Shown here piece after piece: positions 1-34,651 of a stretch of 64,000 nt of DNA (positions are counted from its first letter, which is position 1; every line of letters starts with the position of its first letter). The stretch covers positions 11,722-75,721 of the forward strand of contig JBATUN010000023.1 in NCBI GenBank assembly GCA_049671165.1, in the 5' to 3' direction. Source of the stretch: Dehalococcoidia bacterium. Lineage in GTDB: Bacteria; Chloroflexota; Dehalococcoidia; GIF9; AB-539-J10. The notes under the pieces were generated by a model. It had not been told where the DNA came from. It saw only the letters and a program-made list of their open reading frames with translations, and did no database searches. The position numbers and the translations under genes are program-made.

Positions 1-1131
1 TTCGAGAAGATTGTCAAGTTGGACGATAGAGACAATTATGCCTGGCATAGAAAGGGAATTGAGCTTAACTCTCTGAAGAAATACAAAGAGGCCCTGGATT
101 GTTTTGATAGGGCTATAGTAATCAAACGCAATGACGAATACGGATGGAATCACAGAGGCGTGGCACTGCGGGAGCTCGGAAGATACGATGAGGCTCTCCG
201 TAGCTGTAATAAAGCCATTAGAATCAATAACAAGTACCCTTTTGCCTGGTATACCAAAGGTTCTATCCTCCAACACCTGGGAGACCTTGCGGGAGCCAAA
301 GATTGTTTCCAGAATGCTGTTAGGTTTGCCCCTGATAATGACTCATATAGAAAGCGATTAGCCGGCATCAACGAGATTGCCGGTAGATCAGGAATAGAGA
401 ATGAAACCAGCGCCCAACTGCACCATGATGGGATTGCTCTTAGTAAATTGGGTAAACATGAAGAAGCTCTGGCCCAGTTTAAGAAAGCTATCAAGTTAGA
501 TCCCGAGGATAATGTCGCCTGGCACCGTAAAGGAATAGAACTAAACGCCCTGGGAAAATACAATGAGGCAATAGAGTGTTTTGAAAGGGCTATCAGGATT
601 AATTCCAGAGATAAATTCGCCTGGAACCATCGGGCGCTTTCTCTATGCAGGTTGGGAAATTATGGAGATGCCATAACTTCCTGTAATGAAGCCATCAAGA
701 TAGATGATACCTATCCGTTTGCCTGGTGTAATAGGGCGGTCATATCAGCTCATCTCGAGGACTTCGAGGATTTTCAGAAGTGTTTCCGCAGAGCCCGTCA
801 ACTCGACCCCAAAGGGTTGAATAACCGGTTTCTTGCTGAACACCTGCCAAAGATTGGGTATGAGGATTTGCTCAGCCGGAGTAAGGGCGATGTCAAGCGT
901 TCCAGCTATTACTGTTGCGAGCTCTGCCTGGTGCATCTACAGATAGAAGAAATGCCCCAGGCGTTGAAATATGCGTTGGACTTAGGCAAGTATGCCAACG
1001 AGAAGGTAAAAGCAGTGCTGAAGCCGCTTATCGAAGAACTTGAGTTCCGCATCGACGGGGGCATAGGTGTTACGGAGGACTTGATAGAACGGGCTGATGT
1101 AATACTGCACCAGGTCAAGATGGGATGGTAA
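1..1131 (+). CDS. TPR-repeat protein, 5' partial (reading frame is open to the window edge). Carries a conserved ~75-aa C-terminal domain that is also found at the C-terminus of the TPR-kinase at 13549
   Basis: Repeated 34-aa TPR units (W..KG..L..L.RY.EAL..F..AI.I.P). The C-terminus 'YYCCELCLVHLQ...ALKYALDL...EDLIERADVILHQVKMGW' is nearly identical in pattern to the C-terminus of ORF 13549..15915. Confidence 0.8.
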   Translation, partial: FEKIVKLDDRDNYAWHRKGIELNSLKKYKEALDCFDRAIVIKRNDEYGWNHRGVALRELGRYDEALRSCNKAIRINNKYPFAWYTKGSILQHLGDLAGAKDCFQNAVRFAPDNDSYRKRLAGINEIAGRSGIENETSAQLHHDGIALSKLGKHEEALAQFKKAIKLDPEDNVAWHRKGIELNALGKYNEAIECFERAIRINSRDKFAWNHRALSLCRLGNYGDAITSCNEAIKIDDTYPFAWCNRAVISAHLEDFEDFQKCFRRARQLDPKGLNNRFLAEHLPKIGYEDLLSRSKGDVKRSSYYCCELCLVHLQIEEMPQALKYALDLGKYANEKVKAVLKPLIEELEFRIDGGIGVTEDLIERADVILHQVKMGW

Positions 1132-1215
1132 TATTTCAGGAAACATATTAGAAAAAATCATAACAGGGAGACAGAAGGGGTATCACAATCAATAGGTACC
1201 CACCATTACGTGGAC

Positions 1216-1260
1216 AAACAGGAGATAATAGAAATGATAGATGAGGCGCTAAGGGAATAA
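1216..1260 (+). pseudogene. Decayed remnant of the conserved tail module (KQEIIEMIDEALRE*). It lies in the same frame as, and downstream of, the stop codon of the TPR gene
   Basis: The run aaacaggagataatagaaatgatagatgaggc is identical to the 3' end of genes at 7741-7812 and 10255-10329. No TM helix or start codon precedes it. Confidence 0.45.
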
Positions 1261-1261
1261 A

Positions 1262-1834
1262 ATGAAAAAGCAAGACAAGTGGCTGCTTTGGTTGACCCTA
1301 GTTACGCTCCCCTTTTTATTTAGCGGGGTTATCTTAAGCTTTGTAAACGCAAGCGATCGAATACCCACTGTCATAACTATCACACCTAGCTCATCTAGTG
1401 TCGAGTTCGGCAGCAGTATCACTTTGACTGCCACGCTAAGGAATTCTGAAGGCGATCCCCTGTCTGGGAAAACAATTGTGTGGCTTTTCACCACAACGGA
1501 GTATACCTTTGGCACTAATATCGGAAACCTAGAGCCAAGTCGAGGAGTCACGGACTCTTATGGACAAGCAACCACTACTTATACTCCTGCCATACAAGGT
1601 GAGCCATATGGAGTAACTATCCGAGCTAGCTTTGGTGATTTCATTGATTTTATTGCAATGGGAGATGATTTTCATGAGGGCTCATATGCCGTTTGCCATA
1701 TTAGCGTATCTAGAGCTCCAGGGACCGCTGGTGACATTCAGGATACTACAGGGGCACCATTATGGATTTGGGTAACGCTGACGATATTCCTCGTGGGCAG
1801 TGCTGGCATTGAGCGTCGTTTGGCAAGGAAATAA
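1262..1834 (+). CDS. Membrane-anchored protein with a bacterial Ig-like (Big-like) domain, an N-terminal signal/TM helix and a C-terminal TM helix with a short basic tail (ERRLARK)
   Basis: ATG directly follows the remnant stop codon. N-terminal hydrophobic helix. 'ITITPSSSSVEFGSSITLTATLRNSEGDPLSGKTIVW' resembles a Big-like fold. C-terminal 'LWIWVTLTIFLVGSAGI' is a TM helix. Confidence 0.6.
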   Translation: MKKQDKWLLWLTLVTLPFLFSGVILSFVNASDRIPTVITITPSSSSVEFGSSITLTATLRNSEGDPLSGKTIVWLFTTTEYTFGTNIGNLEPSRGVTDSYGQATTTYTPAIQGEPYGVTIRASFGDFIDFIAMGDDFHEGSYAVCHISVSRAPGTAGDIQDTTGAPLWIWVTLTIFLVGSAGIERRLARK

Positions 1835-1904
1835 ATAGGGCAGTGTAAAATTTGGTGACAATTCTACAATGGATTACTTGTAGCTAACGAATTAGAGGGG
1901 AATT

Positions 1905-2315
1905 ATGCCACTCGGTATTTTTGTTCTTGGGCTTGGATTCTTGATGGGAAGCGGGATATTTGGCGACACGATATCATTGGTCGCATTTATCCTTGGTTTC
2001 CTAGCAGTGTGTCTATTCTCCGCACTCAGACAGAGTCGTAAGTTGTCCCTTTTCTATGGAGTCAATTTCGGCATTGGTATGGTTATCGGCGTATTAGCCT
2101 TTATAGCTGAAGAAGGTTCTGCTGGCTCTGGGCTCGTCTTTGCTTGGATAGCACTGGGCACTATAGGTTCCATTGCTCTGGGAAATGGTGCTGTTTCACT
2201 AGGTTTAAAGAGGAGTTTGAAGAAGCAGCTTGCCAAAGAGCAATTCGAAGCAAAGAAAGCTGAGATAATTGCTATGATAGATGAGGCGTTGGAGGAGGAG
2301 AAGAGGACGCGATAA
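1905..2315 (+). CDS. Small polytopic membrane protein ending in the conserved cytoplasmic tail (KKAEIIAMIDEALEEEKRTR*)
   Basis: Three or four hydrophobic helices followed by a basic stretch and the tail motif. The 3' nucleotide sequence is shared with the other members of the family. Confidence 0.65.
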   Translation: MPLGIFVLGLGFLMGSGIFGDTISLVAFILGFLAVCLFSALRQSRKLSLFYGVNFGIGMVIGVLAFIAEEGSAGSGLVFAWIALGTIGSIALGNGAVSLGLKRSLKKQLAKEQFEAKKAEIIAMIDEALEEEKRTR

Positions 2316-2574
2316 ATAACGCCAAAGATACTTAGAATATGATGACAGATTTGAAGGAGTCATAGACTATGGGAGGATTTTGGATATATACTGCATCCCT
2401 ATAAGGTATCCTGATGCCCTGACCCCTGCTACCATTCCTTATGAGACTTATATCGAAAGGGATGCCTTTGATGCGGTAATTTTGCATGTACAATCGCGGC
2501 AATGGTCAAGGAAGGGCTAGAATAACCAATAAAGGGAAAACGTCTAGCTAGGGTACCATGAGCGAGGAAAGAAC

Positions 2575-2994
2575 ATGCGCAGAATTGGGGTGATATTGGG
2601 GATAGCTGTAGGCTTTGCTATAGGCTATTCAGCTAGCTTCTTGATATTTGCGGGGGGGCCGAAGGCTTGGGGGTTTTGGGGGCTATATCTTCCGATAGTG
2701 ATTGTAGCCACGGTTCTGACGGGCAGAAATACAAGGAGCCGGCTCGCCGTGGTGATCTCCTCGTGTGTCACACTGCTGTGCTTAGTGGTAGCCGGGGTAG
2801 GAGAACACGATTTGGGAACTTACATCTGGATATGCTTTGCAATACCTTTTGCCACGCTTGGAGCAACTAATGGATACTTTATGGGTCAGGCGAGACTCAC
2901 AATAAGGCAGCAGGAAATTAACCGCCTCGAAAAAGAGAAGGCAGAGATAATAGAAATGATAGACGAGGTGTTGGAGGAAGAAAAGAGGCGGTGA
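2575..2994 (+). CDS. Small polytopic membrane protein ending in the conserved cytoplasmic tail (EKEKAEIIEMIDEVLEEEKRR*)
   Basis: Hydrophobic helices followed by 'RLTIRQQEINRLEKEKAEIIEMIDEVLEEEKRR'. Confidence 0.65.
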   Translation: MRRIGVILGIAVGFAIGYSASFLIFAGGPKAWGFWGLYLPIVIVATVLTGRNTRSRLAVVISSCVTLLCLVVAGVGEHDLGTYIWICFAIPFATLGATNGYFMGQARLTIRQQEINRLEKEKAEIIEMIDEVLEEEKRR

Positions 2995-3134
2995 TATTCA
3001 ATGCCCAGTAATATTAAAACCAGATTTGAGCTTGCTAGAAATCGTGAAGATCATTCCATATTAGCTGGAGGGATTCAAGGGTCGAAGTTGTAAGTGTTGA
3101 GGTTGGAGACAGAACATTCGAGGGGGTCTTAAGA

Positions 3135-4862
3135 ATGAAGTGGACAGAAATGGCACTCAGGCTCCTTAGAATAGCACTCATGATTGCCATAATTGGAGTA
3201 GTCCTTTTTTGTGGTGACTATCTCTCCCGTAGCCAGGTCTTGGCAGAATCACCCGCACAGATGGAATGGTCTCAGACATTTGGTGGAGAAGATTCAGAGC
3301 ATGCCGACTCTGTGCAGCAGACCGACGACGGTGGCTATATAGTCGCTGGTACAATCGAATCATATGGCGCCAACCAAGGTGACGCTTGGCTGATAAAGAC
3401 AGATGCGGGCGGGAATGAACAGTGGTCCCGGACATTTGGCGAAAGCTATTATGTCGCAGCCACATTTGTGGAGCAAACCAGCGATGGTGGCTATATTATT
3501 GCCAGTGAGATCGAATCATATGAATCGGGATCATATAGCAGTGACGTCTGGTTGATAAAGACCAATGCGGAAGGAGATGAACAATGGTCCCAGACCATTG
3601 GTGGGACAGACGATGAGGGGGCCCACTCTGTACAGCAAACCAGCGATGGCGGTTATATTATCGCTGGTGACACTTACTCCTATGGTGCCGGCGAGAGTAA
3701 TAATCTCTTGCTGGTAAAGACCGATGCGGGCGGACATGAACAGTGGTCCCGGATCTGGGCTGGAAGCAAATCGGATGTAGCCTGGTGCGTGCAGCAGACC
3801 AGTGACGGCGGTTATATTGTCGCGGGTGAGACGATGTCTTACGGTGTCGGCGATGGTGATTTCTGGCTGATAAAGACGGATGCGGGAGGAAATGAACAGT
3901 GGTCCCGGACATTTGGTGGAAGCGATGATGACGGCGCAAGATCTGTGCAGCAAACCAGTGACGGCGGCTATGTTATCGCTGGTGAAACTTCCTCCTATGG
4001 TGCCGGCGGTGTTGACGCTTGGCTGATAAAGACGGATGCGGGAGGAAATGAACAGTGGTCCCGGACGTTTGGTGTAACAGACAATGAGTGGGCCTACTCT
4101 GTGCAGCAAACCAGCGATGGCGGCTATATTATCGCTGGTCAGACTTACTCATATAGTACGAAGGATACGGATATCTGGTTGATAAAGACCGATGCGGGAG
4201 GAGACGAACAATGGTCCCTGACCTTTGGTGGAGCGGACACTGAGTGTGCCCATTCTGTGCAGCAAACCACTGACGGCGGCTATATTATGGCTGGTAACAC
4301 TGCGTCATATGGTGCTGGCGATGGTGACTTCTGGCTCATAAAGATAGCGATTCCGCCTCCCCCCGACATACCGACCCTCATTTCACCGCCCGACAAGGAC
4401 AGGATAGGACTCATAGGCGGGATTACGCCAACATTTCAGTGGTCTGATGTATCCGACGATAGCGGAGTTCGGTACAACCTGCAGGTAGCGACCCACAAGG
4501 ATGTTACCTCCACCGGAGAATTCGTTGATCCCATGCTTTCGGTTGTGGGTCTGGTCGGAACAAGCTATACCCTGGAAGAGACAGAAGCACTGCCGTATGG
4601 TACCTATTACTGGATTGTACAGGCCGTAGACGAAGCAGAGAATGAAAGTGACTGGACCGCGCCCAGTTCGTTCCAAGTTGGGCTATTGCCCCTATGGGGA
4701 CTCGTTGCCATTATCGTAGTCCTGGCGATGCTGTTGATCCTCTTAACTCGTGCCCTAGTAATGAGAGCGAGATCAAGAGCAACACGACTGATAGAGAGGG
4801 AGAAAAAAGAGATAATAGAAATGATAGATGAGGCGTTGGAGGAAGATAAGAGGTCGCGATGA
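3135..4862 (+). CDS. Type-I-like membrane protein with an N-terminal signal anchor, about eight tandem ~47-aa beta-propeller-like repeats, an FN3-like domain, a TM helix and the conserved tail
   Basis: Repeat unit 'SVQQTSDGGYIIAG.T.SYGAG..DAWLIKTDAGGNEQWSRTFGG'. The 'PPPPDIPTLISP...YYWIVQAVDEAENESDWTAPSSFQV' region resembles FN3. C-terminal TM helix 'LWGLVAIIVVLAMLLILL' followed by 'EREKKEIIEMIDEALEEDKRSR*'. Confidence 0.8.
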   Translation: MKWTEMALRLLRIALMIAIIGVVLFCGDYLSRSQVLAESPAQMEWSQTFGGEDSEHADSVQQTDDGGYIVAGTIESYGANQGDAWLIKTDAGGNEQWSRTFGESYYVAATFVEQTSDGGYIIASEIESYESGSYSSDVWLIKTNAEGDEQWSQTIGGTDDEGAHSVQQTSDGGYIIAGDTYSYGAGESNNLLLVKTDAGGHEQWSRIWAGSKSDVAWCVQQTSDGGYIVAGETMSYGVGDGDFWLIKTDAGGNEQWSRTFGGSDDDGARSVQQTSDGGYVIAGETSSYGAGGVDAWLIKTDAGGNEQWSRTFGVTDNEWAYSVQQTSDGGYIIAGQTYSYSTKDTDIWLIKTDAGGDEQWSLTFGGADTECAHSVQQTTDGGYIMAGNTASYGAGDGDFWLIKIAIPPPPDIPTLISPPDKDRIGLIGGITPTFQWSDVSDDSGVRYNLQVATHKDVTSTGEFVDPMLSVVGLVGTSYTLEETEALPYGTYYWIVQAVDEAENESDWTAPSSFQVGLLPLWGLVAIIVVLAMLLILLTRALVMRARSRATRLIEREKKEIIEMIDEALEEDKRSR

Positions 4863-4938
4863 ACAATGCCGACCTCCCCAACTCCTGAGGATAGTCAACT
4901 AAGATCAGACAACCGCACATGGATAATCGGATCTAGAC

Positions 4939-7812
4939 ATGAAGAATAGACAGGTGCCCTTACTATCTCTGCTCTGTATCACACTCGCGTGCAGGCTGAT
5001 GCTTCCTGCTGTGTTAGCGGGAGCTTCAGCAGTCATGTCTCTGCCGGATGCCCGTATTGGTAGTCATGCAATTGAGGAAGCAGAACACGCCTCCATGATT
5101 GCGGCAGGTAAGCAGCACATTGTAGGACTTAGCGACAAAGGCACGGTCGTCGCCGTGGGATTGAACGCCCAAGGTCAGTGCAACGTGGATGGCTGGACGG
5201 ATATCACTCAGATTGCTGCAGGTGAGAGTCACACGGTGGGGTGTAAGTCTGATGGCACCGCGGTCGCCGTGGGAGGTAACTCGGATGGAGAGTGCAACGT
5301 GGATGGCTGGACGGATATCATTCAGGTCGCTGCGGGGCAGTATTGGCACACAGTCGGGCTTAAATCCGATGGTACCGTGGTTGCCGTGGGATGGAACGAC
5401 CATGGGGAGTGTGATGTTGGCGGCTGGAAGGGCATCACCAGAGTCGCCGCAGGTGCATATCATACGGTGGGGCTCAAGAATGATGGCAGGGTGGTCGCCG
5501 TAGGAGATAACTCATACGGGCGGTGTGATGTTGGCGGCTGGAAGGGCATCACCAGAGTCGCCGCAGGTGCATATCATACGGTGGGGCTCAAGAATGATGG
5601 CAAGGTGGTCGCCGTAGGAGATAACTCATACGGGCAGTGTGATGTTGGCAGCTGGACGAACATGGTTCAGGTCGCCGCAGGCGTCTGTCACACAGTGGGG
5701 CTTAGGGACGATGGCACCGTCGTCGCTGTGGGATGCAATACCCTCGGGCGATGCGATGTCTACGGCTGGACGGACATGATCCATGTCACGGCAGGCACGT
5801 CTACCACAGTAGGACTCCGGGCCAACGGAACTGTGATTGCTGCAGGACAGGTGTACGGTGGACAGTGCGACGTTAACAGCTTGACTGACATGACCCAGAT
5901 CGCTGCAGGTTACTATCATACCGTGGGAATAAAGACTGACGGCACTGTAGTCGCAGCAGGATACAGTGCCATAGGACGGTGCAATGTCGGCGGTTGGACG
6001 AACATCATCCAGATCGCCGCAGGCGATTTTCACACGGTAGGGGCCAAGTCCGACGGCACCGTGGTTGCCGTGGGGTACGGCGCCAGTGGGCGGTGCGATG
6101 TCGGAAACTGGACAGATATCGTGCAAGTCAGTGCGGGTGAGGCTCACACCGTGGGGCTTAGGGCCGATGGCACCGTCCTCGCTGTGGGATACAGTGGTGA
6201 TGGGCGGTGTGATGTGAGCGACTGGGCGGATATCACTCAGGTCGCGGCAGGCTGGTGTCATACAGTGGGCGTTAAATCCAACGGTACTGTGGTAGCTGTG
6301 GGAACAAACAGTCATGGACAGTGCGATGTCACCGGCTGGACCAATATCATGCAGATCGCTGCAGGCGCCTGGCATACAGTAGGGCTGAAAACAGATGGTA
6401 CCCTAGTCGCGGTGGGATGCAACGACCAAGGGCAGTGTGATATTTCCAGTTGGACGGATATCATCCAGATCTCCGCGGGCCGCGATCACACGGTGGGGGT
6501 TGAATTTGACGGTACTGTGGTCGCCGCGGGAGACAACGCCGGCGGGCAATGCAATATCGGCGACTGGACGAATATTGTCCAAGTCGCAGCGGGTCAATTA
6601 CACACGGTTGGGCTTAGGGCCGATGGCACCGTCTTTGCTGCAGGCCCAGAAATTGAGCTAGCCAAATGGGATCTAATAGAGCCTGTTGGGAATGATGATG
6701 TCAATGAAGTGAGCCCTACAACGTCCCTTTACCTGGTTTACCAGGCTGACCTTAGCGGTGTTGAGCCTAGTAACGAAACCGAGCTGATGCTTACGACAAA
6801 AGAAGTGATCGAACGGCGCGTTAATGCCTTCGGGATAACAGATGCAACTATTGCAGTACAGGAACAGCTAGGAGAATGGAGCATTGCTATACAGCTACCG
6901 GGCATTGTTGAGATTGACAGGGTCAAGGAGCTACTGGTGTGTTTCGCCTTGCTTGAGTTCAAGGAGCAAGATGAAGAAGGAAATTGGATTCCTGCCACAG
7001 GTATAGTGAGCGGCAAGCAACTGGTGCTTAGCAGTAGGTATTTTGAGGAAAACACCTCTATTAGTGTGGACCAATATGGGAAACCGCTACTAGTATTTGA
7101 GTGGGATGAGATGGGAGGGGAGCTTTCGAAACAAATAACAACCCGCCTTCTCGGCAAACCATTGGCGATCTTCCTTGGCGATGAGCCGCTCCGTGGTGAA
7201 GATGGCCATGTCATCGCCCCGGTAGTCCAGGCGGTCATAGAAGATGGGGCACAAATTGAAGGATTAAGCCTTGCCGATGCCACTGAATTACGAGACTTGC
7301 TGAATGCCGGGAAGATTCCTGTTCCATTAGGTAGGTGGGTGGAGGAAGGCCAATCCAGGTTGTTTGAGTCTGATGTGCCTCTATATGAAGGGCAGGTGAC
7401 CCCCGCGACTTTAGTAATCAATGTTGCCCCGAGTGATAGTGGCATGGTCACCTTATCACCCTCTCAGCCTGCCGAAGGATATGTCGCCGGGACAGAAGTC
7501 ACACTGACCGCTGTTGCTAGCGAGGGATATAAATTTAGCCACTGGAGTGGCGCCACCTCAGGGTCGCAAAGCCCCACTACAATAACCATAGACTCGGATA
7601 AGGAGGTAAGTGCCAGCTTCATAGTCGAGGGACAAGCTTTTCCTCTGAATGTGATATACATCATAGGGGCAGCCTTTGGTGTAGTGGTGCTCGTTCTGGC
7701 AGTGTCAAAGGTACGGAGAAGGGCGCGTAGTACAAGAGAGCAGCTTGAGAAAGAAAAACAGGAGATAATAGAAATGATAGATGAGGCATTGGAAGAGGAG
7801 AAGAAGCGGTGA
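4939..7812 (+). CDS. Surface protein with a signal peptide, more than 25 RCC1-like repeats, a central domain, an InlB B-repeat (Listeria-Bacteroides repeat), a TM helix and the conserved tail
   Basis: Repeats 'HTVGLKSDGTVVAVG.N..GQCDV.GWTDI.Q.AAG' (RCC1/BLIP-II-like). 'EGYKFSHWSG' is the B-repeat signature. TM helix 'VIYIIGAAFGVVVLVLAV' followed by 'EKEKQEIIEMIDEALEEEKKR*'. Confidence 0.85.
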   Translation: MKNRQVPLLSLLCITLACRLMLPAVLAGASAVMSLPDARIGSHAIEEAEHASMIAAGKQHIVGLSDKGTVVAVGLNAQGQCNVDGWTDITQIAAGESHTVGCKSDGTAVAVGGNSDGECNVDGWTDIIQVAAGQYWHTVGLKSDGTVVAVGWNDHGECDVGGWKGITRVAAGAYHTVGLKNDGRVVAVGDNSYGRCDVGGWKGITRVAAGAYHTVGLKNDGKVVAVGDNSYGQCDVGSWTNMVQVAAGVCHTVGLRDDGTVVAVGCNTLGRCDVYGWTDMIHVTAGTSTTVGLRANGTVIAAGQVYGGQCDVNSLTDMTQIAAGYYHTVGIKTDGTVVAAGYSAIGRCNVGGWTNIIQIAAGDFHTVGAKSDGTVVAVGYGASGRCDVGNWTDIVQVSAGEAHTVGLRADGTVLAVGYSGDGRCDVSDWADITQVAAGWCHTVGVKSNGTVVAVGTNSHGQCDVTGWTNIMQIAAGAWHTVGLKTDGTLVAVGCNDQGQCDISSWTDIIQISAGRDHTVGVEFDGTVVAAGDNAGGQCNIGDWTNIVQVAAGQLHTVGLRADGTVFAAGPEIELAKWDLIEPVGNDDVNEVSPTTSLYLVYQADLSGVEPSNETELMLTTKEVIERRVNAFGITDATIAVQEQLGEWSIAIQLPGIVEIDRVKELLVCFALLEFKEQDEEGNWIPATGIVSGKQLVLSSRYFEENTSISVDQYGKPLLVFEWDEMGGELSKQITTRLLGKPLAIFLGDEPLRGEDGHVIAPVVQAVIEDGAQIEGLSLADATELRDLLNAGKIPVPLGRWVEEGQSRLFESDVPLYEGQVTPATLVINVAPSDSGMVTLSPSQPAEGYVAGTEVTLTAVASEGYKFSHWSGATSGSQSPTTITIDSDKEVSASFIVEGQAFPLNVIYIIGAAFGVVVLVLAVSKVRRRARSTREQLEKEKQEIIEMIDEALEEEKKR

Positions 7813-7818
7813 TATTGA

Positions 7819-8268
7819 ATGGCGAGAAATACTACAAACAGGTCTGAATCGACTGGAAATCCAGGGGCTGATTTTGTGCTAGTTGGAAGGGTTCGACGGT
7901 TGGAAAGGATCGTATCACGCCACCTGAACGAAATACAGGCCGTCCTGGCTCTGATGCTGGTTATTTCAGCGCTCGTTCTTCCTCTACCACAGCCGGCAGT
8001 GGCCCAATCGCTTGATACATCAGCCTCGTGGCCGATGTTCCGCCAGAACTCGCGGCACACCGGCCTGAGCCCTTATGATACGGGTGACAATCCGGGTACC
8101 CAGAAGTGGACCTTCACCACGGGACACTATGTAGATTCTTCTCCGGCGATAGGCAGTGACGGCGCGATACATGTGCGTTCTAGATATGTGTTATCCCTAG
8201 AGTTATCGGCAGCTAACCGAGGCAACATTGGTGAGCGATCAGGGGTACGTTCAGGTGAGCAGAAATAA
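7819..8268 (+). pseudogene. Truncated N-terminal fragment of a PQQ-like beta-propeller repeat protein (signal peptide plus the first blade only)
   Basis: 'ALMLVISALVLPLPQPAVAQS' followed by 'WPMFRQNSRHTGLSPY...GTQKWTFTTGHYVDSSPAIGSDGAIHV' is a typical start of PQQ-repeat proteins. Similarity ends after one blade and the ORF terminates. Confidence 0.35.
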
Positions 8269-8310
8269 GACATCTGCATTCAATCATATTTCCTCCCTGT
8301 CAGAGGTGAG

Positions 8311-10329
8311 GTGGCAATGAAGACTGCTTTCCAATCGTGGAAAGGGATATCTGTTGCGGTCTTAGTTTTGTTTATCCTGCCCCTTGCTTCACTTCTGTTG
8401 TCGATACCTGCCCGTGCTAGTGAAAATGTTTGGCGTGAGCTTGACACTGGAATTGACTTTGAAATCTCACCTGAATCATATGGCCTTCACGACATCTGGG
8501 CCAATTCTGCTTCGGATATTTTCGCTGTCGGTGACAATGGTGTAATCGTGCACTACGATGGTAGTAGCTGGCACAAGATGAACAGCGGAGTCACATCAAG
8601 CCTCTCTTCTGTATGGGGTAGTTCATCGTCCGATGTCTTCGTGACGACCGGCGGCACAATACTGCATTATGATGGCAGTACGTGGAGCGAAATGGCCACT
8701 GGAGGGTATGGCGCCGGAGATGTATGGGGCAGTTCAGCCAGTGACGTCTATGCAGTGGGTGGTAAGCGTATCCTCCACTACGACGGAGGCAGTTGGACAG
8801 AGATAGTTGGCACAGGTTCTTCACACTCCCGGTACGGTGTTTGGGCAAGTTCATCATCGGACGTATTTGTTATAGGTTCGGGAGGTAGAGTCGAACATTA
8901 TGATGGGAGCACATGGACCCTCATGGATAATCTCGATTCTGCTTTTCTTTTGACTATATGGGGAAGTTCATCATCTGATGTCTTTGCAGGTGGTGACAAG
9001 CGAGCAGTCTTTCACTACGACGGTAGCACATGGAGAAGGATGAGCCTTCCCCATAGCACTCACAATGATCAGATCGTGTCTTTTTGGGGAAGCTCTCCTT
9101 CTAATATATTCGCTGTCTCCAACACTAATGCCATATACCGCTACGATGGCAGCGCATGGACCGAAATGAATAGATGGCTTCTTACATGGAATCTTTGGGG
9201 TATAGGGGGTAGTTCCGCCAATGACGTCTATGCAGTGGGTTATCCCTGTCATCCGGAGAGGAGCCCTATTCTACACTACCCCGAGCCAGAGTGGCTCGGC
9301 GACGCAGTGGACAATGTAGCACTTACGTGGAGCACCGGGGGCAGTGCCAAATGGATCGCACAAACGTGCCGCAGTTATTACGACGGTGACGCTGTTCAAA
9401 GTGGTTACATCACCCATAACCAAGCCACCTGGATAAGAACCACGGTCACCGGACCGGGGACTTTGAGCTTCTACTGGATGGTCCGTTCTCAAGATGAGTA
9501 TGACTGCCTAGAGTTCCATATCGATGGACTGGAACAAGTAAGCATCTCGGGTTCTCCTCAGTGGGAGCAAGAAACGCACTCTATCGCCTCAGGCACTCAT
9601 ATTGTGGAATGGAGATATACTAAGGATGGCTCGCAAGACAGTGACATGGACCGCGCCTGGCTTGATAAAGTGGAATTCACGTCAACACCAACCTATGCTC
9701 TTTCGGTGTACGAAAGCCCGAGTGGAAGCGGTACTGTGACCCCCTCTCCCTCCCAACCTTCAGGCGGATATACGGCTGCTACGGAGGTAACACTGACTGC
9801 AGAAGCTAACGAAGGCTATGAGTTTGACCACTGGAGCGGGACCAGCAATAACAACATAAACCCAACGACTGTTACCATGAATTCCGACAAGAGTGTCACG
9901 GCCTACTTTGAAGAGATACCACCAGACCAACATACCCTTAGCGTGAGCGTTAGTGGTCAAGGGACAACCAATCCCAGCGTGGGGAGTCACGGTTATGATG
10001 AAGGGACAGAAGTCACTGTGACTGCCTATTCTGCTTCTGGGTGGGAATTCGACCACTGGAGTGGCGCACTGTCTGGTTCTCAAAACCCCACTACAATGAC
10101 CATGGACTCGGACAAACAGGTAAGTGCCACCTTCATTGCTGAGGGACAAGCTTTCCCACTATATCTTATATATATCATCGGTGCAGCCTTTGGGGTACTG
10201 GTACTCATTCTGGCAATTAGAAAGGTACGGAAAAAGGCGCTTAGTCCAATGGAGCAGCTTGAGAAGGAGAAACAGGAGATAATAGAGATGATAGATGAGG
10301 CGTTGGAGGAGGAGAAGCGGAGGCGATAG
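8311..10329 (+). CDS. Surface protein with a signal peptide, tandem 'YDGSxW...WGSSSSDVF' beta-propeller repeats, a jelly-roll-like middle region, two InlB B-repeats, a TM helix and the conserved tail
   Basis: About ten ~45-aa repeats. 'GYEFDHWSG' and 'GWEFDHWSG' are B-repeat signatures. TM helix 'LYLIYIIGAAFGVLVLILAI' followed by 'EKEKQEIIEMIDEALEEEKRRR*'. Confidence 0.8.
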   Translation: MAMKTAFQSWKGISVAVLVLFILPLASLLLSIPARASENVWRELDTGIDFEISPESYGLHDIWANSASDIFAVGDNGVIVHYDGSSWHKMNSGVTSSLSSVWGSSSSDVFVTTGGTILHYDGSTWSEMATGGYGAGDVWGSSASDVYAVGGKRILHYDGGSWTEIVGTGSSHSRYGVWASSSSDVFVIGSGGRVEHYDGSTWTLMDNLDSAFLLTIWGSSSSDVFAGGDKRAVFHYDGSTWRRMSLPHSTHNDQIVSFWGSSPSNIFAVSNTNAIYRYDGSAWTEMNRWLLTWNLWGIGGSSANDVYAVGYPCHPERSPILHYPEPEWLGDAVDNVALTWSTGGSAKWIAQTCRSYYDGDAVQSGYITHNQATWIRTTVTGPGTLSFYWMVRSQDEYDCLEFHIDGLEQVSISGSPQWEQETHSIASGTHIVEWRYTKDGSQDSDMDRAWLDKVEFTSTPTYALSVYESPSGSGTVTPSPSQPSGGYTAATEVTLTAEANEGYEFDHWSGTSNNNINPTTVTMNSDKSVTAYFEEIPPDQHTLSVSVSGQGTTNPSVGSHGYDEGTEVTVTAYSASGWEFDHWSGALSGSQNPTTMTMDSDKQVSATFIAEGQAFPLYLIYIIGAAFGVLVLILAIRKVRKKALSPMEQLEKEKQEIIEMIDEALEEEKRRR

Positions 10330-10419
10330 ACAATGCCGCAGACATCACTGCTATAATAGTCACAACAGATGAAGCCCTCGTAGAGATCAGACCTTGAACA
10401 AAAGAAGAGGTGATAGACA

Positions 10420-12612
10420 ATGACAGATGATAAGGAAAGTGGCCAGAACCTAAAAAAGGAGGTTGTGGAGGCTGTCTCGCTCTTACGGCAGAAGCATGAT
10501 GGTGCCGACATAAATGAAGCGACAGAGTTCCTCCGCAAGGCAAAAGAGGCTATCGTTAAGAACGACTTCACTCAGGCATTGACCCTAGTCGGGAAGGCAC
10601 AGCTTGCTGCTCGACCGACGACAGAGTATCTTTTGGGCAGGGCCAAGAACCTGGAGGATACCGGAAGTCAGGCATACAAAAAAGGAAACTTCGCAAATGC
10701 CATAGAGTTGTGGCAGAGGTCTCTCAAAGAATATGGTCAAGCACAGAAGCAAGCTAAGAGCAGAGGCGAAAAGGAGATAGTTGAAGCCGTGAAGTCAACC
10801 GTTGACAGCATCAAGGCAGATATAAAGAGTGCTGAGACTGAGAAAGGCAATAGAGACATGCTGGCACTGGTCGAACAGGCAAACAAAGCCGTAGACGAGG
10901 CGAATGACAAGTTTGAAGCCAAGGAATTCGATACTGCCAAGGAAAGCTTTGAATCAGCCCGTGAGTTATATGCTAAAGCTGCTGCCGTCGCCGAGCAACT
11001 TGGCTCGGAAGATAAAGCCAGGTTGAGACAGATAGACGTGGATATGGCCACAAGCGTAGAAGCTTGTTTTCTTGGCAAGGGGGAGGTGCTTATCGAGCAA
11101 GCTTCTAAGGAAAAGGGCGAAAAGAAAGAGGCTGCCTTCTCAGACGTGATAGGGTATCTTGAATCATTCTCCTCTGACAGCCAAAGTTGTGAAGAACTCA
11201 GGGCGAAGGCTTACCAGGGTATGGCGCTGGGAAGAATAGAAGAGGGAATGGCGCTTATGGAGCAGGCTGAAGGATTGCTAGGACAGGGAGAACACTACAA
11301 GGCGAAGGAGGCATATCGCAAAGCCCAGGAGCACCTGGAAAGCCTGCGCGATTTTGCCGTGGAGCATAAGTTGGAAAGGGAAAAGGGGGAGGTTGATAAC
11401 CTGATAGATGATTGCGCAGCGAACGTAAAGGCATGCACCGATTCTATGCTGGGGGGGAGAGAAGGCGTGGCAGAGGGTGCAATCAGGAAAGTGGGAGATT
11501 TGAGGAAAGGCAAGAGGCCGCGCTTGAGACGCGAAGCTTTTAGTGATGAGAGAATGGAGAAGATCAAGACCGAGTATGAGCTTGTCAGATACCTGGGAGG
11601 GGGAGGCTTCGGTGATGTCTATCTGGCGAAGAACAGAGAAGGAGTCACTGTGGCCATAAAAGTTCCTAAAGACCTTGACAAGCACGGTGAGGAGACGTTC
11701 TTTCGTGAACTTGCGATATGGGGAAAACTTAGTCATAGGAATATAGTCAAGTTGTTACGGCCCAGGTTAACGCCCATACCTCTTTTTGAGATGGAGTATA
11801 TTGAAGGTGGAGACCTGGGGAGGTTATTGCGGGACACCAGAGCACTTTCATCCGAGAGGGCCTGTCGGATAGCCTTCGATATCGCCAGAGGGCTTCAATA
11901 TGCCCATGCCTCGCATAATGTCATTCACACTGACCTGAAACCAAGGAATATTCTGCTTACAAGCTTGGAAGAGGCCAAGATAAGCGACTGGGGCCTGGGG
12001 AAAGTCGCCACGAGCTCCAGCAGCGTTAAGGGCTATACCGAGTCCTATGCCGCCCCGGAGCAGATTGCTAGGGGGAAAGCCGAAGAGAAAACAGACACAT
12101 ACCAGCTGGGGGTGTTGTTCTATGAAATGATCGCGGGTCGTAATCCATTCGCTGGTGGTTCGGTGTATGAAGTCCGGGAGAAGGTATTGAACTTCATCCC
12201 CGAGAAACCCAGCACGTGCGCTAAAAACCCTGCAATCGAGCCCCTGGACGATATGGTGACAAGCTGCCTGCAAAAGGACTCTCAAGATAGACCGGCAATC
12301 AAGCAATTCAGGGAGGTGATATACAGATATATGAGGGAGGCCCATGGTGTCTCGCTCCATCTGACTAAGGCAGTCGGTTCTCAGACGAATCTCCTGTGTC
12401 GCATGGCCCTGCTTGAAGCCAAAGAGAGCAACTATGCGGGGCTGCTGCCGTGTCTAGAGCAATTAAAAACATTGGTGCACGATAAGCAAAGAAAGCGAAA
12501 CGTGCAGAACCTGATAGACGTTATGGCCATTCGGAAAAAGCAAGAGATGGAGATTGGGGAGGAAGCCATAGACGAGCTCAATGCTTTGGTGAGGTGGGCA
12601 GAATATGGCTGA
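10420..12612 (+). CDS. Hanks-type Ser/Thr protein kinase with a long N-terminal coiled-coil region and a C-terminal helical domain. The catalytic loop reads HTD rather than HRD, and the magnesium-binding motif is DWG rather than DFG
   Basis: 'LGGGGFGDVY...VAIKV' (Gly-loop and VAIK), 'HTDLKPRNILL', 'ISDWGLGK' and 'APEQ'. Confidence 0.85.
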   Translation: MTDDKESGQNLKKEVVEAVSLLRQKHDGADINEATEFLRKAKEAIVKNDFTQALTLVGKAQLAARPTTEYLLGRAKNLEDTGSQAYKKGNFANAIELWQRSLKEYGQAQKQAKSRGEKEIVEAVKSTVDSIKADIKSAETEKGNRDMLALVEQANKAVDEANDKFEAKEFDTAKESFESARELYAKAAAVAEQLGSEDKARLRQIDVDMATSVEACFLGKGEVLIEQASKEKGEKKEAAFSDVIGYLESFSSDSQSCEELRAKAYQGMALGRIEEGMALMEQAEGLLGQGEHYKAKEAYRKAQEHLESLRDFAVEHKLEREKGEVDNLIDDCAANVKACTDSMLGGREGVAEGAIRKVGDLRKGKRPRLRREAFSDERMEKIKTEYELVRYLGGGGFGDVYLAKNREGVTVAIKVPKDLDKHGEETFFRELAIWGKLSHRNIVKLLRPRLTPIPLFEMEYIEGGDLGRLLRDTRALSSERACRIAFDIARGLQYAHASHNVIHTDLKPRNILLTSLEEAKISDWGLGKVATSSSSVKGYTESYAAPEQIARGKAEEKTDTYQLGVLFYEMIAGRNPFAGGSVYEVREKVLNFIPEKPSTCAKNPAIEPLDDMVTSCLQKDSQDRPAIKQFREVIYRYMREAHGVSLHLTKAVGSQTNLLCRMALLEAKESNYAGLLPCLEQLKTLVHDKQRKRNVQNLIDVMAIRKKQEMEIGEEAIDELNALVRWAEYG

Positions 12613-13336
12613 TCTTGATATAGCCTGCGTTACTGATACTGGGGGCAGGGGTGGAAATGAAGATAGATTGGTGGCCAAAAGCCTCGGGGCAGTACATTTG
12701 CTTGCAGTTGCTGATGGTTTGGGAGGGCATGCGGCCGGTGAAGTTGCCAGTAGTGTAGCTTTGACAGAGCTGGAAGGATATCTCAGGGCAAACGTAGTCG
12801 GGGAAGATATTCTGCACGCGGTGAAAGAAGCCGTGTCAAAAGCAAACAAAGAGATTCACCTACTATCTGAGGAGAACCCTGGCTATGCTGGCATGGGCAC
12901 AACTCTGGTCATGGGGCTGGTTCAGGCGGACAAGGTTCTGGTAGCTAATGTGGGGGACAGCCGACTATATCATATTTCGGAGAATGCGATGAACCAGATA
13001 ACCAGAGATCACTCCGTAGTCCAGGAACTCGTGGAGCAAGGATTGATTACAGCGCAAGACGCCTTATGTCATCCTGAGAAGAGTGTCCTGACAAGGGTGC
13101 TGGGCTTGGAGCCAGAGGTAGAAGCAGATACCTATGATATTGAGTTTTTGCCCGACGATCTTTTGCTTCTCTGTTCCGATGGGTTGACGGACTCCCTAAG
13201 GGATGAAGAGATTCGGGGAATCATCGTCTCTTCAGGTAACCTGGATGAGGCTTGCGCCAGGCTCATAAGCCTGGCCAGAGAAAAAGGTGGCACGGACAAT
13301 ATCAGCGTAGTTCTGGCAAGGAGGAAACGGGAGTAA
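12605..13336 (+). CDS. PP2C-family Ser/Thr protein phosphatase (Stp1-like)
   Basis: 'LLAVADGLGGHAAGEVAS', 'LVANVGDSRLY' and 'GGTDNISVVL'. Its start overlaps the kinase stop by 8 nt, which suggests translational coupling. Confidence 0.9.
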   Translation: MADLDIACVTDTGGRGGNEDRLVAKSLGAVHLLAVADGLGGHAAGEVASSVALTELEGYLRANVVGEDILHAVKEAVSKANKEIHLLSEENPGYAGMGTTLVMGLVQADKVLVANVGDSRLYHISENAMNQITRDHSVVQELVEQGLITAQDALCHPEKSVLTRVLGLEPEVEADTYDIEFLPDDLLLLCSDGLTDSLRDEEIRGIIVSSGNLDEACARLISLAREKGGTDNISVVLARRKRE

Positions 13337-13548
13337 GGTAACACAAGGTAGCTGTACATGGGGCCGCTGATGACGAAAGAATGAATAGTCTCGGTAAAAC
13401 CATCGGTCACTACCTGGAAGAGTTAGAACCTGAGTGACTGGATGAACTCAGAGCGATGAGAATTAAGCCTGCGCGTAGGGAGAAAACCATAACTGACGAA
13501 ATCGAGCATAAGACGCTGTAGGGCAGAGGATCGAAGAGGGAACTCGCT

Positions 13549-15915
13549 ATGGGAAAGAATGATGATCAGAAGGGGCTTTACGAAGAAACCGTGAGCGCCT
13601 GCACCAAGGCGACAAACAGAGACCCAAACGATGCTATCTCCTGGCTACTCAAGGCCTTTGCCCTTTTTGAACTCGCAAGATACGAAGAATCCGTAGATGC
13701 CTGGAATGGAGCGATAGAAATAAACCCAGAAGATGCCAACCTCTGGCATTACAAAGGCCTTGCCCTTTTCAGACTTGAGAGATATGAGGAGGCACTAGAT
13801 GTCTATAATAGAGCGATGGAGATAGACCCAAAAGATGCCGTCCTCTGGCGTAACAAAGGCCTTGCCCTTCTCAGACTTGAGAGATATGAGGAGGCACTAG
13901 ATGTCTATAATAGAGCGATAGAGATAGACCCGAAAAATGCTGATGCTTGGCATAGCAAGGGGCTTGCCCTTTGTAAGCTTGAGAGATATCAAGAGGGTGT
14001 GGCTGCATACGATAAGGGGATAGAGATGAACCCGAAACACGCTGATGCGTGGCACGACAGGGGAATTGGGCTTGGCAGACTTGAAAGATACGAAGAAGCC
14101 CTGGATGCCTTCAACAGAGCGCTAAAGGTGAACCCAGAACATCCTACTGCTTGGTATAACAAGGGCCTTGCCCTTTATAGACTCGATAGATATGAGGAGG
14201 CCCTAGACGCCTACAACCGGATGATAGAGATAGACCCAGAAACTGCTGGTGCCTGGAATGCCAAGGGCCTTGCCTTTGAGAGGCTAAAGAGGTATGAAGA
14301 GGCCCTGGATGCCTACAACAGGGTGATAGAGATAGATCCAGAAGATGCCCTTGCTTGGCATAACAAGGGATTCTCTCTTCGCAAGCTTGAGAGATATGAA
14401 GAGGCGGTAGATGCCTACAGTAGAGCGATAGAGATAGACCCAGGGGATGCCGATACTTGGCATGGTAGGGGACTTGCCCTTGGTCATCTTGAGAGATATG
14501 AAGAGGCTGTGGATGACTACAATACCGCGATAAAGGTAAATCCAAAAGATGTTCTTGCATGGTATCGCAAGGGGTGTGCTCTGGAACATCTGGATAGGTA
14601 TGAGGACGCAATAAGGTGCTATCGAAAGACCATTGAGCTCGACCCGCATAATGAAAATGCGAAGGCGGCTTTGGCGTCACTTGAGCAGGGTCGGCAGAAG
14701 AAGGGGCAGGCGAAGGTCTTCGAAGCCGCTGGGGCCCACGAAGCTGATGAAGAGTCGGAAGGGGCTTTGATCTCCCTGGAACACACTCAACGAGGGAAGG
14801 AGCAGGCTGAGATTGCTCCCCATCGAGTACGTCCAAGTGTTTTCAGTTCTTCCTTTCCGGGAGAGCTGAATCAATATTATTCTGACGTCTCATTCATTGG
14901 CAGCGGTGGTTTCGCCCGTGTATTCCGTGCTAAGAGAAGAACTGATGGCACGGAAGTGGCCGTCAAAATCCCCCTGTTTGGAGATCCCAAAACGGGTAAA
15001 AGTTTCATCAGAGAGATAACTTCCTGGCAGGTTCTGGAGCACAGAAACATTGTCAAGCTCTACGACTTCAATGTCCTGCCTCTTCCGTACCTGGAGATGG
15101 AGCTATGTGATGGCAGCTTAGAAGACCTGCCGAAACCTGTCGGCGTTGAGGAAGCCACTCGCCTCGTATTTGATATCGCCAATGGTCTAAGTCATGCGCA
15201 TGCTAAACACATAATCCACCGGGACCTCAAGCCCGGTAATATTCTGACGCGTACTGGTATTCCCAAGATTTCCGACTGGGGACTAAGCAAGACAATTGCT
15301 ATGGGTAGGAGCTCAGGAACTCCTAGTTTCTCACCGATGTATGCCGCACCTGAACAGTTATCGCCGGATAGATTTGGCAAACCTGACTACAGAACGGACA
15401 TCTACCAACTGGGCGCTATCTTCTACGAGCTTGTTACGGGTGAACTGCCACACAAAGGAGACAGCATCACCGAGATTATGGCGCAGATTCTCATGGGGCA
15501 ACCGGAATTTCCGTCACAGCTGGACTTAGAAAAAAAGGGCATAAAACACATCATCATACGCTGTCTGGAGAAGAAGATGAGTCAGCGCTACCAGAGTGTT
15601 GACCAGCTACAAAGAGAGCTGGCTGAGTATCTCAAAGTAGAGTATGAAGAATCGCTCGGCAGGAGCCACGGAGATATGAGGCGTTCCGGACATTATTGCG
15701 CGGAACTCTGCCTGGTTCACCTTCAGGTCGGTAATACCTCTGAAGCGTTGAAATACGCGCTGGACTTAACCAACTATGCTAGTGGGCAAGCTAAGGTTCT
15801 CTTGACGCCGCTAATTGGAGAACTGGAGTTCCGCCGGAAAGAAGAACAAGCAGTTCCTGAAGACTTGATAGAGCGGGCAGGTGTGGTCTTGCACCAGGTG
15901 AAGATGGGGTGGTAA
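13549..15915 (+). CDS. TPR-repeat (about ten repeats) Ser/Thr protein kinase with a DWG motif. Its C-terminal ~75 aa are homologous to the C-terminus of the TPR protein at 1..1131
   Basis: TPR units in 13600-14640. 'GSGGFARVF...VAVKI', 'HRDLKPGNIL', 'ISDWGLSK' and 'APEQ'. C-terminus 'HYCAELCLVHLQ...ALKYALDL...EDLIERAGVVLHQVKMGW'. Confidence 0.9.
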   Translation: MGKNDDQKGLYEETVSACTKATNRDPNDAISWLLKAFALFELARYEESVDAWNGAIEINPEDANLWHYKGLALFRLERYEEALDVYNRAMEIDPKDAVLWRNKGLALLRLERYEEALDVYNRAIEIDPKNADAWHSKGLALCKLERYQEGVAAYDKGIEMNPKHADAWHDRGIGLGRLERYEEALDAFNRALKVNPEHPTAWYNKGLALYRLDRYEEALDAYNRMIEIDPETAGAWNAKGLAFERLKRYEEALDAYNRVIEIDPEDALAWHNKGFSLRKLERYEEAVDAYSRAIEIDPGDADTWHGRGLALGHLERYEEAVDDYNTAIKVNPKDVLAWYRKGCALEHLDRYEDAIRCYRKTIELDPHNENAKAALASLEQGRQKKGQAKVFEAAGAHEADEESEGALISLEHTQRGKEQAEIAPHRVRPSVFSSSFPGELNQYYSDVSFIGSGGFARVFRAKRRTDGTEVAVKIPLFGDPKTGKSFIREITSWQVLEHRNIVKLYDFNVLPLPYLEMELCDGSLEDLPKPVGVEEATRLVFDIANGLSHAHAKHIIHRDLKPGNILTRTGIPKISDWGLSKTIAMGRSSGTPSFSPMYAAPEQLSPDRFGKPDYRTDIYQLGAIFYELVTGELPHKGDSITEIMAQILMGQPEFPSQLDLEKKGIKHIIIRCLEKKMSQRYQSVDQLQRELAEYLKVEYEESLGRSHGDMRRSGHYCAELCLVHLQVGNTSEALKYALDLTNYASGQAKVLLTPLIGELEFRRKEEQAVPEDLIERAGVVLHQVKMGW

Positions 15916-15988
15916 GGGCCGCACAAAGTAAAGACTGGATCTTGGGGATTTCTTATGGAAGCCCGAACACGGACATCGACCCGTTGTG

Positions 15989-16018
15989 TTGATTGCATAT
16001 TCAGAGGAGCGTTATAGT
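15989..16018 (+). promoter_or_regulatory. Putative sigma-70-like promoter (TTGATT-N18-TATAGT) upstream of the ESCRT-III-like gene
   Basis: Found by eye. It sits in the 139-nt gap before the ATG at 16055, which has an AGGAGG RBS. Confidence 0.25.
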
Positions 16019-16054
16019 GTATAGAACCACAATATAACAAAGGAGGCAAAAGAG

Positions 16055-16654
16055 ATGGCAGGGTTCATTGAAAGAAGGCGTCAGGCGAAGGAAATCGAGC
16101 GCGATGTGAAGTTCAAGCAGGGGCTCTCCCGGGTGCGGAACTATGTTCATAAGTCCAACGATGCACAGAAGAAGTACTGGCAACTGGGCAAACGAGCTCT
16201 GAAACTGGGTGATAGGCAGCAGTTTGAGAACGGGGCCAAAGCTTATCTTCGCACGGCGGAGATGATTAACCGCTGGGAAAGATTCCTGGTAGCCATGGAA
16301 ACAGTCTCGCTACAGCGTGACCAGGTAAGAGTAACTGGCGAGTTCGCCAAGTCTATGGGCGCGTTGAGCAAGTCCATGATGGCCGGGGCTAGTCCTCAGG
16401 ATATTACCAAGATGCAGATGGATCTGGAACGTGCCCTCGCCAAAGCACATACCCTCGACGAGACCCTGGCCGCTGTAATGGACGCTACCAGCGATACCAT
16501 TTTCACGTCGGAAGGGGTCTCCGAAGAGTCGCTGCAACAGGTAGAAGGCGCCATGAAGGGTGAGGCGGTGCACGAAGAGGGAGAGACTCTCGATGATCGG
16601 ATTTCTGCCGGACTGCGCCGTATCGAAGAAGAAATGAGAAAGGAATCAAAATGA
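16055..16654 (+). CDS. Snf7/ESCRT-III family protein (CHMP2/Vps2-like) with a basic N-terminus, an acidic C-terminus and a C-terminal MIM1-like amphipathic helix
   Basis: By-eye alignment with human CHMP2A. 'VSLQRDQVRVTGEFAKSMGALSKSMMAGASPQDITKMQMDLERALAKAHTLDETLAAVMDATSD' corresponds to 'VSLKIQTLKSNNSMAQAMKGVTKAMGTMNRQLKLPQIQKIMMEFERQAEIMDMKEEMMNDAIDDAMGD'. C-terminus 'DDRISAGLRRIEEEMRK' corresponds to the CHMP2A MIM 'DADLEERLKNLRRD'. AGGAGG RBS. Confidence 0.75.
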   Translation: MAGFIERRRQAKEIERDVKFKQGLSRVRNYVHKSNDAQKKYWQLGKRALKLGDRQQFENGAKAYLRTAEMINRWERFLVAMETVSLQRDQVRVTGEFAKSMGALSKSMMAGASPQDITKMQMDLERALAKAHTLDETLAAVMDATSDTIFTSEGVSEESLQQVEGAMKGEAVHEEGETLDDRISAGLRRIEEEMRKESK

Positions 16655-17766: not shown

Positions 17767-17795
17767 TAGTGCACTCATGGACCAAGGCTAGAGTG

Positions 17796-18248: not shown

Positions 18249-18260
18249 GCCAGAGGTGAA

Positions 18261-34559: not shown

Positions 34560-34650
<91 letters not shown>

Positions 34651-34651
34651 G

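Follow-up and report, generated by a model that had tools for sequence, protein, structure and literature searches.

We analysed a 64,000-nucleotide stretch of the Dehalococcoidia bacterium contig JBATUN010000023.1 (the window), in which a TPR-repeat protein and two Ser/Thr kinases, encoded close to a Snf7/ESCRT-III-like and a Vps4-like gene, end in homologous C-terminal domains. Judged from sequence comparison, this domain (the tail) is the C-terminal domain found throughout an archaeal-type family of Hanks Ser/Thr kinases of Snf7/Vps4 loci. Structure prediction describes it as an autonomous four-helix bundle of ~80 residues, preceded in the kinases by a short helix that extends the last kinase helix. 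Because kinase-less forms with TPR, HEAT or TIR regions exist, the tail is a portable module and more than a kinase appendage. We see an even chance that it acts as an autonomous docking or assembly module, tying variable N-terminal parts (heads) to ESCRT-III/Vps4 or to a shared complex that surrounds this machinery. The domain has already been noted in a published survey (Makarova et al. 2024, PMC11188069); its occurrence without a kinase is the new point.

Three copies of the tail in the window

The genes that carry the tail and the copies themselves are:
1..1131, +, ORF1 (open reading frame 1), TPR-repeat protein with the C-terminal tail and no kinase domain (translation; Pfam finds TPR only)
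823..1128, +, tail copy 1, ORF1 residues 275-376 (BLASTP E 7e-34 against copy 2; family profile E 1.8e-33)
10420..12612, +, kinase 1, with a helical N-terminal region, Pkinase at residues 386-631 and a diverged tail (Pfam)
12334..12609, +, tail copy 3, kinase 1 residues 639-730, of a diverged 'kinase-1-type' subfamily (family profile E 6e-4; hhalign)
13549..15915, +, TPR-kinase 2 (kinase 2), with ~10 TPRs, Pkinase at residues 444-687 and the tail (Pfam; identical to NCBI MGB5925600.1)
15610..15912, +, tail copy 2, kinase 2 residues 688-788 (family profile E 2.5e-38; AlphaFold2 models)

An earlier note on this DNA had described a common C-terminal module of ~75 residues in ORF1 and kinase 2, and both C-termini that it quoted occur in the sequence exactly as written. 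BLASTP bore out the sharing (62 of 102 aligned positions identical, 61%; E 7e-34), and the common stretch is longer than described, at ~101 C-terminal residues. It begins at the end of the last kinase helix (QRELAEYLKVEYEESL in kinase 2, NRFLAEHLPKIGYEDLL in ORF1), and the autonomous four-helix core of copy 1 is predicted to run from about nucleotide 883 (residue ~295) to 1128. ORF1 stops with TAA at 1131 and has about six TPRs ahead of the tail. Its 5' end is lost at the window start, with ~32 N-terminal residues missing relative to the orthologue P0204 (408 residues, 71% identity); a second orthologue, P0123, has 300 residues (67%). Copy 1 retains most of the core residues of the family, with E in place of the consensus G at positions 43 and 61. 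The tail lies directly after the Pkinase domain in kinases 1 and 2 and not in ORF1, which appears to be an unusual kinase-less variant of the family.

The codon alignment of copies 1 and 2 gave 67% DNA identity (47% at third codon positions), with a nonsynonymous divergence (dN) of 0.26 and a saturated synonymous divergence (dS) of 2.8 (dN/dS 0.09). Given this DNA identity and the saturated dS, the two are not recent duplicates but paralogues that split long ago and are under purifying selection. A recent partial gene duplication, raised in the earlier note, would have left near-identical DNA and no conservation in orthologues; instead, P0204 and P0123 keep the domain. With a BLASTP E value of 7e-34, independent profile matches of 1e-33 to 1e-38 and orthologues of both genes, such a duplication, or a chance resemblance between helical low-complexity sequences, has virtually no likelihood. 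For the ORF1 tail against those of its orthologues, dN/dS is 0.11-0.16. The kinase-borne tail nearest to that of ORF1 is that of kinase 2 in the same locus (62%; others at most 57%), which fits descent of ORF1 from a TPR-kinase of this clade that lost its kinase domain long ago.

Kinase 1 is collinear with kinase 2 up to residue 718 of 730, 12 residues short of its end. A pairwise shuffle test of its tail was weak and ambiguous (z 3.7 against one canonical copy, 0.8 against the other), and the family profile matched residues ~661-726 at E 6e-4. The tails of its relatives P0282-P0292 matched the whole model at E values from 5e-10 to 2e-4. Alignment by hhalign of five kinase-1-type tails (A5) with forty canonical tails (A3) gave a probability of 97.1% and E 5.2e-11 over 89 columns, end to end, confirming the diverged third copy that had been suspected at the end of the first kinase. 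Six-frame profile scans found these three tails in the window and no further copy.

The tail family and its kinase-less members

The family profile was a hidden Markov model (HMM) of 113 homologues, Thermococcus proteins included and window sequences excluded. Against the six-frame translation of the window it recovered the tails of kinase 2 and ORF1 at E 2.5e-38 and 1.8e-33, and otherwise only that of kinase 1. With these values, and with hhalign for the third copy, the window tails are homologous to the C-termini of the locus kinases of Thermococcales and Methanomicrobia. When kinase and tail together served as query, 1712 proteins were matched at E ≤ 1e-10; among them, the best 120 share 46-65% identity over 81-100% of the query (mostly at least 95%). 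Searching with the tail alone (phmmer) located it in 119 of these best 120, nearly always within a few residues of the C-terminus. The idea that the domain tags the TPR and kinase components of the cluster therefore stands as far as the TPR protein and both kinases carry it, and falls as far as it was to be specific to the cluster. Sources named among the best homologues are several Thermococcus species, Methanosarcinales, Ca. Argoarchaeum, Ca. Alkanophagales, Thermoplasmata, Methanoregula and metagenome-assembled genomes (MAGs) of Dehalococcoidia/Chloroflexota. The Thermococcus kinases have 50% identity over 96-100% of the query, tail included. The N-termini of the homologues are variable, with TPR, transmembrane, PEGA, Ig-like and MIT-like segments.

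The earlier note had proposed building a profile and searching databases with it. When 1.84 billion representatives (clustered at 50% identity) were searched exhaustively by HMMER with a profile of 40 tails, 247 clusters matched at E ≤ 1e-3, 185 of them at E ≤ 1e-10, and the domain proved conserved. Its core signature comprises Y31, C32, L35, K50, Y51, D54, L55, Y58, L70, L74, R77, E87, A92 and H97, and a near-invariant His (92%) is located in the last helix. No Pfam or NCBIfam model matched any tail tested, and a search of PDB sequences with the tail profile gave nothing below E 0.04. A word-indexed search with the tail alone came back empty, a false negative of the word filter, since the same database yields hundreds of proteins with the kinase and tail query. 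A scan of genome contigs with eight close tails returned only a spurious 12-residue match in Mycobacterium.

Among the 263 tail-bearing proteins collected (numbered with P; related loci are numbered with L), a kinase domain is present in 234 and absent in 29. Of these 29, about half are short products; several of the short ones start at the very end of a kinase domain and are evident C-terminal fragments of kinases. Genuine kinase-less proteins with an assigned head are listed below; several more have N-termini without domain assignment. Most or all of the core signature positions are retained in the kinase-less proteins.
P0204, P0123, P0209, P0190 and P0230: TPR and tail
P0163: HEAT and tail
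P0184: PPC and tail

A protein of 259 residues with TIR_2 and tail is encoded in Thermococcus gammatolerans (CP001398; L007:14540-15319), its tail at residues ~175-246 being matched at E ~1e-7 by both tail profiles. The gene sits between two tail-bearing kinases, among the defence-like genes ATPase_2, Mrr_cat and HATPase_c_4.

AlphaFold2 modelled the tail alone (40 sequences) with a mean predicted local distance difference test (pLDDT) of 90.6 and a predicted template modelling score (pTM) of 0.81, as a short helix followed by helices of 18, 14, 19 and 15 residues, with no strands. In the model of kinase plus tail (112 sequences; pLDDT 90.9, pTM 0.90), the last kinase helix continues as one long helix (query residues 252-272) into four more helices. 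The confident four-helix prediction and the 247 clusters agree with the conserved helical domain that the earlier note had proposed. The predicted fold is a generic up-and-down four-helix bundle. Foldseek with the tail model gave no match in the PDB better than E 0.3; the closest shapes were CheA-P1/HPt domains and designed four-helix bundles (template modelling (TM) scores 0.58-0.68), the best being CheA P1 (TM score on the query 0.68, E 0.32). With the full model of kinase plus tail, essentially only the kinase domain was matched (~250-295 columns), and the longer alignments were to calcium-dependent protein kinase (CDPK) entries only, at a root-mean-square deviation above 10 Å. Since the matches are confined to the kinase domain, no known kinase appears to share the C-terminal bundle.

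Several identities for the tail were considered. The likeness to HPt/CheA-P1 is that of generic bundles; the family His lies in the last helix, the solvent-exposed phospho-accepting His of HPt on the second. An MIT identity was rejected: the MIT domain of Vps4, which binds ESCRT-III, is also small, helical and at home in ESCRT systems, but it has three helices where the tail has four, and hhalign of the MIT-like N-termini of the local Vps4 proteins (A6) against the tails (A3) gave a probability of 1%. A TPR identity was dismissed on a weak TPR_2 match in only 2 of 40 tails (best E 0.016). Like the tail, the PCI domain of the proteasome, COP9 and eIF3 is helical and in part TPR-like, and HHpred similarity to PCI and winged-helix domains has been reported for the helical domain of the survey kinases (PMC11188069). 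This similarity was not reproduced by Pfam, Foldseek or the AlphaFold2 models: PCI (PF01399) had no Pfam match at E ≤ 10 in 3 + 40 tails and no PCI protein was among the 50 Foldseek hits listed, and both models are all-helical, without strands and so without a wing.

Linkage to Snf7-Vps4 and possible roles of the tail

The neighbours of the kinase genes in the window are:
12605..13336, +, PP2C-type Ser/Thr phosphatase, overlapping the end of kinase 1 (Pfam PP2C)
16055..16654, +, Snf7/ESCRT-III-like gene, starting 139 nucleotides 3' of kinase 2 (Pfam Snf7, 29 bits against a cut-off of 27.3)
16651..17766, +, Vps4-like AAA ATPase with an MIT-like N-terminus, overlapping Snf7 by 4 nucleotides (Pfam AAA, AAA_lid_3, weak Vps4_C)

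The N-terminal profile of the Vps4-like protein matches the 74-residue PDB chain 2mpk_A ('Chitin synthase 1'; E 0.003), which we take to be an MIT domain. In related contigs, tail genes have as direct neighbours orthologues of Snf7 (36-88% identity to the window protein) and of the Vps4-like protein (53-85%), and the pairing of a kinase-1-type kinase with PP2C is conserved in L002 and L009. The tail genes that adjoin the Snf7-Vps4 orthologues are:
L002/L003: kinase P0009
L005/L006: TPR and tail protein P0204
L008: TPR and tail protein P0123
L009: HEAT and tail protein P0163, between Snf7 and Vps4

Tail-kinases also stand beside Snf7-Vps4 in all six informative metagenome loci (L011-L016). Thus, in every informative locus of the window's clade, a tail gene adjoins Snf7-Vps4 whatever its N-terminal part. 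The heads of these neighbours are coiled-coil kinase, TPR-kinase, TPR or HEAT, and the tail alone is constant. In T. gammatolerans, the homologue P0042 has two further kinases and PP2C as neighbours and a Vps4 gene ~9 kb away.

A conserved module lies just upstream of the tail gene at L002:2930-6858 and L005:93-3872; it encodes a protein of ~634 residues, one of ~199 residues and a 400-residue AAA ATPase sharing 38-41% identity with the Vps4-like protein. A counterpart may precede the start of the window.

'Main' clade euryarchaeal ESCRT loci often hold a Ser/Thr kinase and a phosphatase nearby, and the survey notes a 'small helical domain' at the C-terminus of these kinases (PMC11188069). As in the window, that domain directly follows a Hanks-type kinase, in loci with Vps4, ESCRT-III and PP2C, a neighbourhood that L002, L005, L008, L009 and L011-L016 share. 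The window differs in that its contig is bacterial-looking, the N-termini are TPR or helical rather than transmembrane and Ig-like, and one copy is kinase-less. Our analysis thus mostly rediscovers the domain of the 2024 survey; it adds that the domain is portable and also found on kinase-less proteins, that its genes closely adjoin Snf7-Vps4 and that it is present on a bacterial-looking contig.

The window proteins are identical to NCBI MGB5925598-MGB5925631, encoded on an 81-kb contig that is labelled as a Dehalococcoidia bacterium MAG. The archaeal-type locus of Snf7, Vps4-like, Ser/Thr kinase and PP2C genes (10420-18698) shares its contig with genes for a sigma-70 factor, an ABC-F protein and HisKA_3 histidine kinases (38620-40038, 47416-49392). 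From its gene content the host contig looks bacterial; mis-binning or chimeric assembly is possible. A Vps4-like ATPase appears to be absent in bacteria according to a 2025 review (PMC7619361), and Makarova et al. state that ESCRT components were not found there (PMC11188069).

Because the heads beside Snf7-Vps4 vary and the tail is constant, conserved and predicted to fold alone, the tail is most simply read as the part that works with Snf7/Vps4; an interaction or localisation role is plausible for a domain that is the constant part of variable proteins in this position. Partner binding is what we infer beside the homology, autonomy, purifying selection, predicted fold and linkage of the tail. 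In this docking proposal, the tail would hold kinase, TPR, HEAT or TIR heads at Snf7-Vps4 or the surrounding complex, and the heads would supply catalysis, or recognition of cargo and partners. Focal adhesion kinase (FAK) ends in a four-helix bundle, the FAT domain, a targeting module that binds LD motifs (amphipathic helices), and FRNK is a kinase-less product that shares the targeting domain of FAK and co-exists with the kinase. By analogy only, the present family likewise combines a C-terminal four-helix bundle on a kinase with a kinase-less protein carrying the same bundle, and ORF1 could be a kinase-less adaptor or competitor that is brought to the site of the kinases, as FRNK is relative to FAK. 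The two differ in that FAT has no sequence match and no significant structural match to the tail (the nearest FAT-like Foldseek match was the GIT1 paxillin-binding domain, probability 0.51, TM 0.44), and in that organisms and pathways are unrelated. Candidate partners of the tail would be ESCRT-III or Vps4 directly, another tail, or a third component. Makarova et al. suggested that the helical domain of their kinases either serves oligomerisation or binds arCOG09748 proteins at their winged-helix domain (PMC11188069). No obvious equivalents of arCOG09748 or arCOG08177 were recognised in the window, where no arCOG profile search was made.

Three points weigh against the docking proposal. In L004, a tail-kinase lies with a leucine-rich repeat (LRR) protein and PP2C by type IV pilus genes, with no Snf7 or Vps4 within 10 kb. 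The predicted four-helix bundle is generic, so the fold itself would indicate no particular partner. The rigid model of kinase and tail, with a single bridging helix and a pTM of 0.90, fits a fixed and possibly cis-regulatory arrangement. In its strongest form, the proposal makes the tail an unnamed ESCRT-docking domain that binds the Snf7-type polymer or Vps4 directly and recruits interchangeable heads to membrane-remodelling sites, in a Snf7 and Vps4 system that moved from archaea into Dehalococcoidia; this version we consider unlikely. If true, it would provide a prokaryotic counterpart of the eukaryotic adaptor domains that bind ESCRT-III, with the kinase-less TPR protein as a dedicated cargo or regulator adaptor. 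The domain has neither a Pfam or NCBIfam model nor a solved structure, yet is the one feature that stays constant among the proteins encoded beside Snf7-Vps4 in these loci. A defined profile and clear boundaries make it searchable, and a portable tail points to a handle that may couple signalling proteins to prokaryotic ESCRT-III/Vps4.

Pairing of tails with each other, homotypic or heterotypic, could instead unite the two kinases and the TPR scaffold or drive trans-autophosphorylation, with the linkage to Snf7/Vps4 holding only at the level of the pathway. Most loci sequenced over ~9 kb or more have two tails or more (two or three per locus in the window, L002, L007, L009 and L035), and the multi-tail loci of the window's clade combine one canonical with one kinase-1-type tail. 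Oligomerisation is among the options of the survey (PMC11188069), and the pattern of a small helical domain recurring within one neighbourhood matches the logic of effector-associated and Death-like adaptor domains, which are predicted to couple proteins by homotypic domain-domain interaction (Kaur et al. 2020, PMC7159879). Those domains are likewise small and alpha-helical and sit on several proteins of one neighbourhood, with kinase, TPR and TIR heads; their systems are built on STAND, vWA-MoxR or GTPase cores whereas the present loci are built on Snf7/Vps4, and the likeness is one of pattern. Single tail genes speak against pairing: one stands beside Snf7-Vps4 in L005, L008 and L012-L016, where the contigs may be too short, and L004, L013 and L014 have one tail within the 12-21 kb read. 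We regard pairing as possible, if somewhat on the unlikely side, and it overlaps with the docking proposal rather than opposing it. The rigid two-domain model, in which the last kinase helix is continuous into the tail, and the position of 234 of the 263 tails directly after a kinase domain would also suit a tail that extends the kinase C-lobe and regulates or stabilises it in cis, binding no partner itself, with the kinase-less proteins as evolutionary leftovers. The kinase-less forms have at least four types of head, orthologues and most or all of the conserved signature, and they fill the same slot by Snf7-Vps4 with a tail predicted with confidence to fold alone. A purely cis-regulatory role is unlikely because these forms are under purifying selection, and we give this account only a small chance; the rigid model leaves room for a dual role.

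An acidic C-terminal peptide, …EKEKxEIIEMIDEALEEEKRR, ends five membrane or secreted proteins of the window, and the tail might be its receptor, in the way that FAT binds LD motifs.
2262-2315, 2944-2994, 4809-4862, 7750-7812 and 10264-10329: acidic tail peptide sites

Variants such as IEKEKAEIIDMIEDRLKRD and IEEQKAEIIGMIDEALNNK end several proteins of the tail-carrying loci L002, L009, L013 and L014, among them the LRR protein of L002. The variants were found by listing the C-termini of open reading frames and with a looser pattern; the strict regular expression matched the window alone. C-terminal four-helix bundles of kinases can bind amphipathic helices, as FAK FAT does, and a pairing of tail and peptide, an idea of the earlier note, is possible inside this clade. 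It is not the ancestral function of the domain, because the T. gammatolerans locus has the tail and the peptide motif was detected neither there nor in L035/L037. As the domain is far more widespread than the peptide, and the MIT-like domain of the Vps4-like protein and the TPR arrays are at least as good as receptor candidates, we hold this account to be very improbable.

Further motifs and features of the window

A 42-codon open stretch in the frame of ORF1 (1132-1260) directly follows its TAA and ends …VDKQEIIEMIDEALRE*, 1 nucleotide upstream of the ATG of the open reading frame at 1262. It is a remnant of the tail peptide, or a tail-peptide micro-ORF starting at GTG 1210.

A second motif, W-E-x-E-G-Y-D-V/I-S-x-F-K-x-K-W-F, occurs at 17832-17880 and 18300-18348, near the N-terminus of two paralogous membrane proteins (17763.. 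and 18261..). Elsewhere it was seen at L004:12958, L011:357, five sites of L013 and three of L014. It stands at the extreme C-terminus of several proteins of related loci, including the LRR protein beside the tail-kinase of L004, and near the N-terminus of the tail-kinase P0004. The motif could be a further sorting or recognition signal.

At 40736-42337 (-), the window encodes an LRR protein with an N-terminal membrane anchor and without either C-terminal motif, similar in domain content to the LRR proteins beside the tail-kinases of L002 and L004. A tandem pair of tRNA-Ser genes without any spacer (anticodons GGA and CGA) is located at 34560-34739 (-), and an IS110-family transposase is encoded at 57231-58505 (+).

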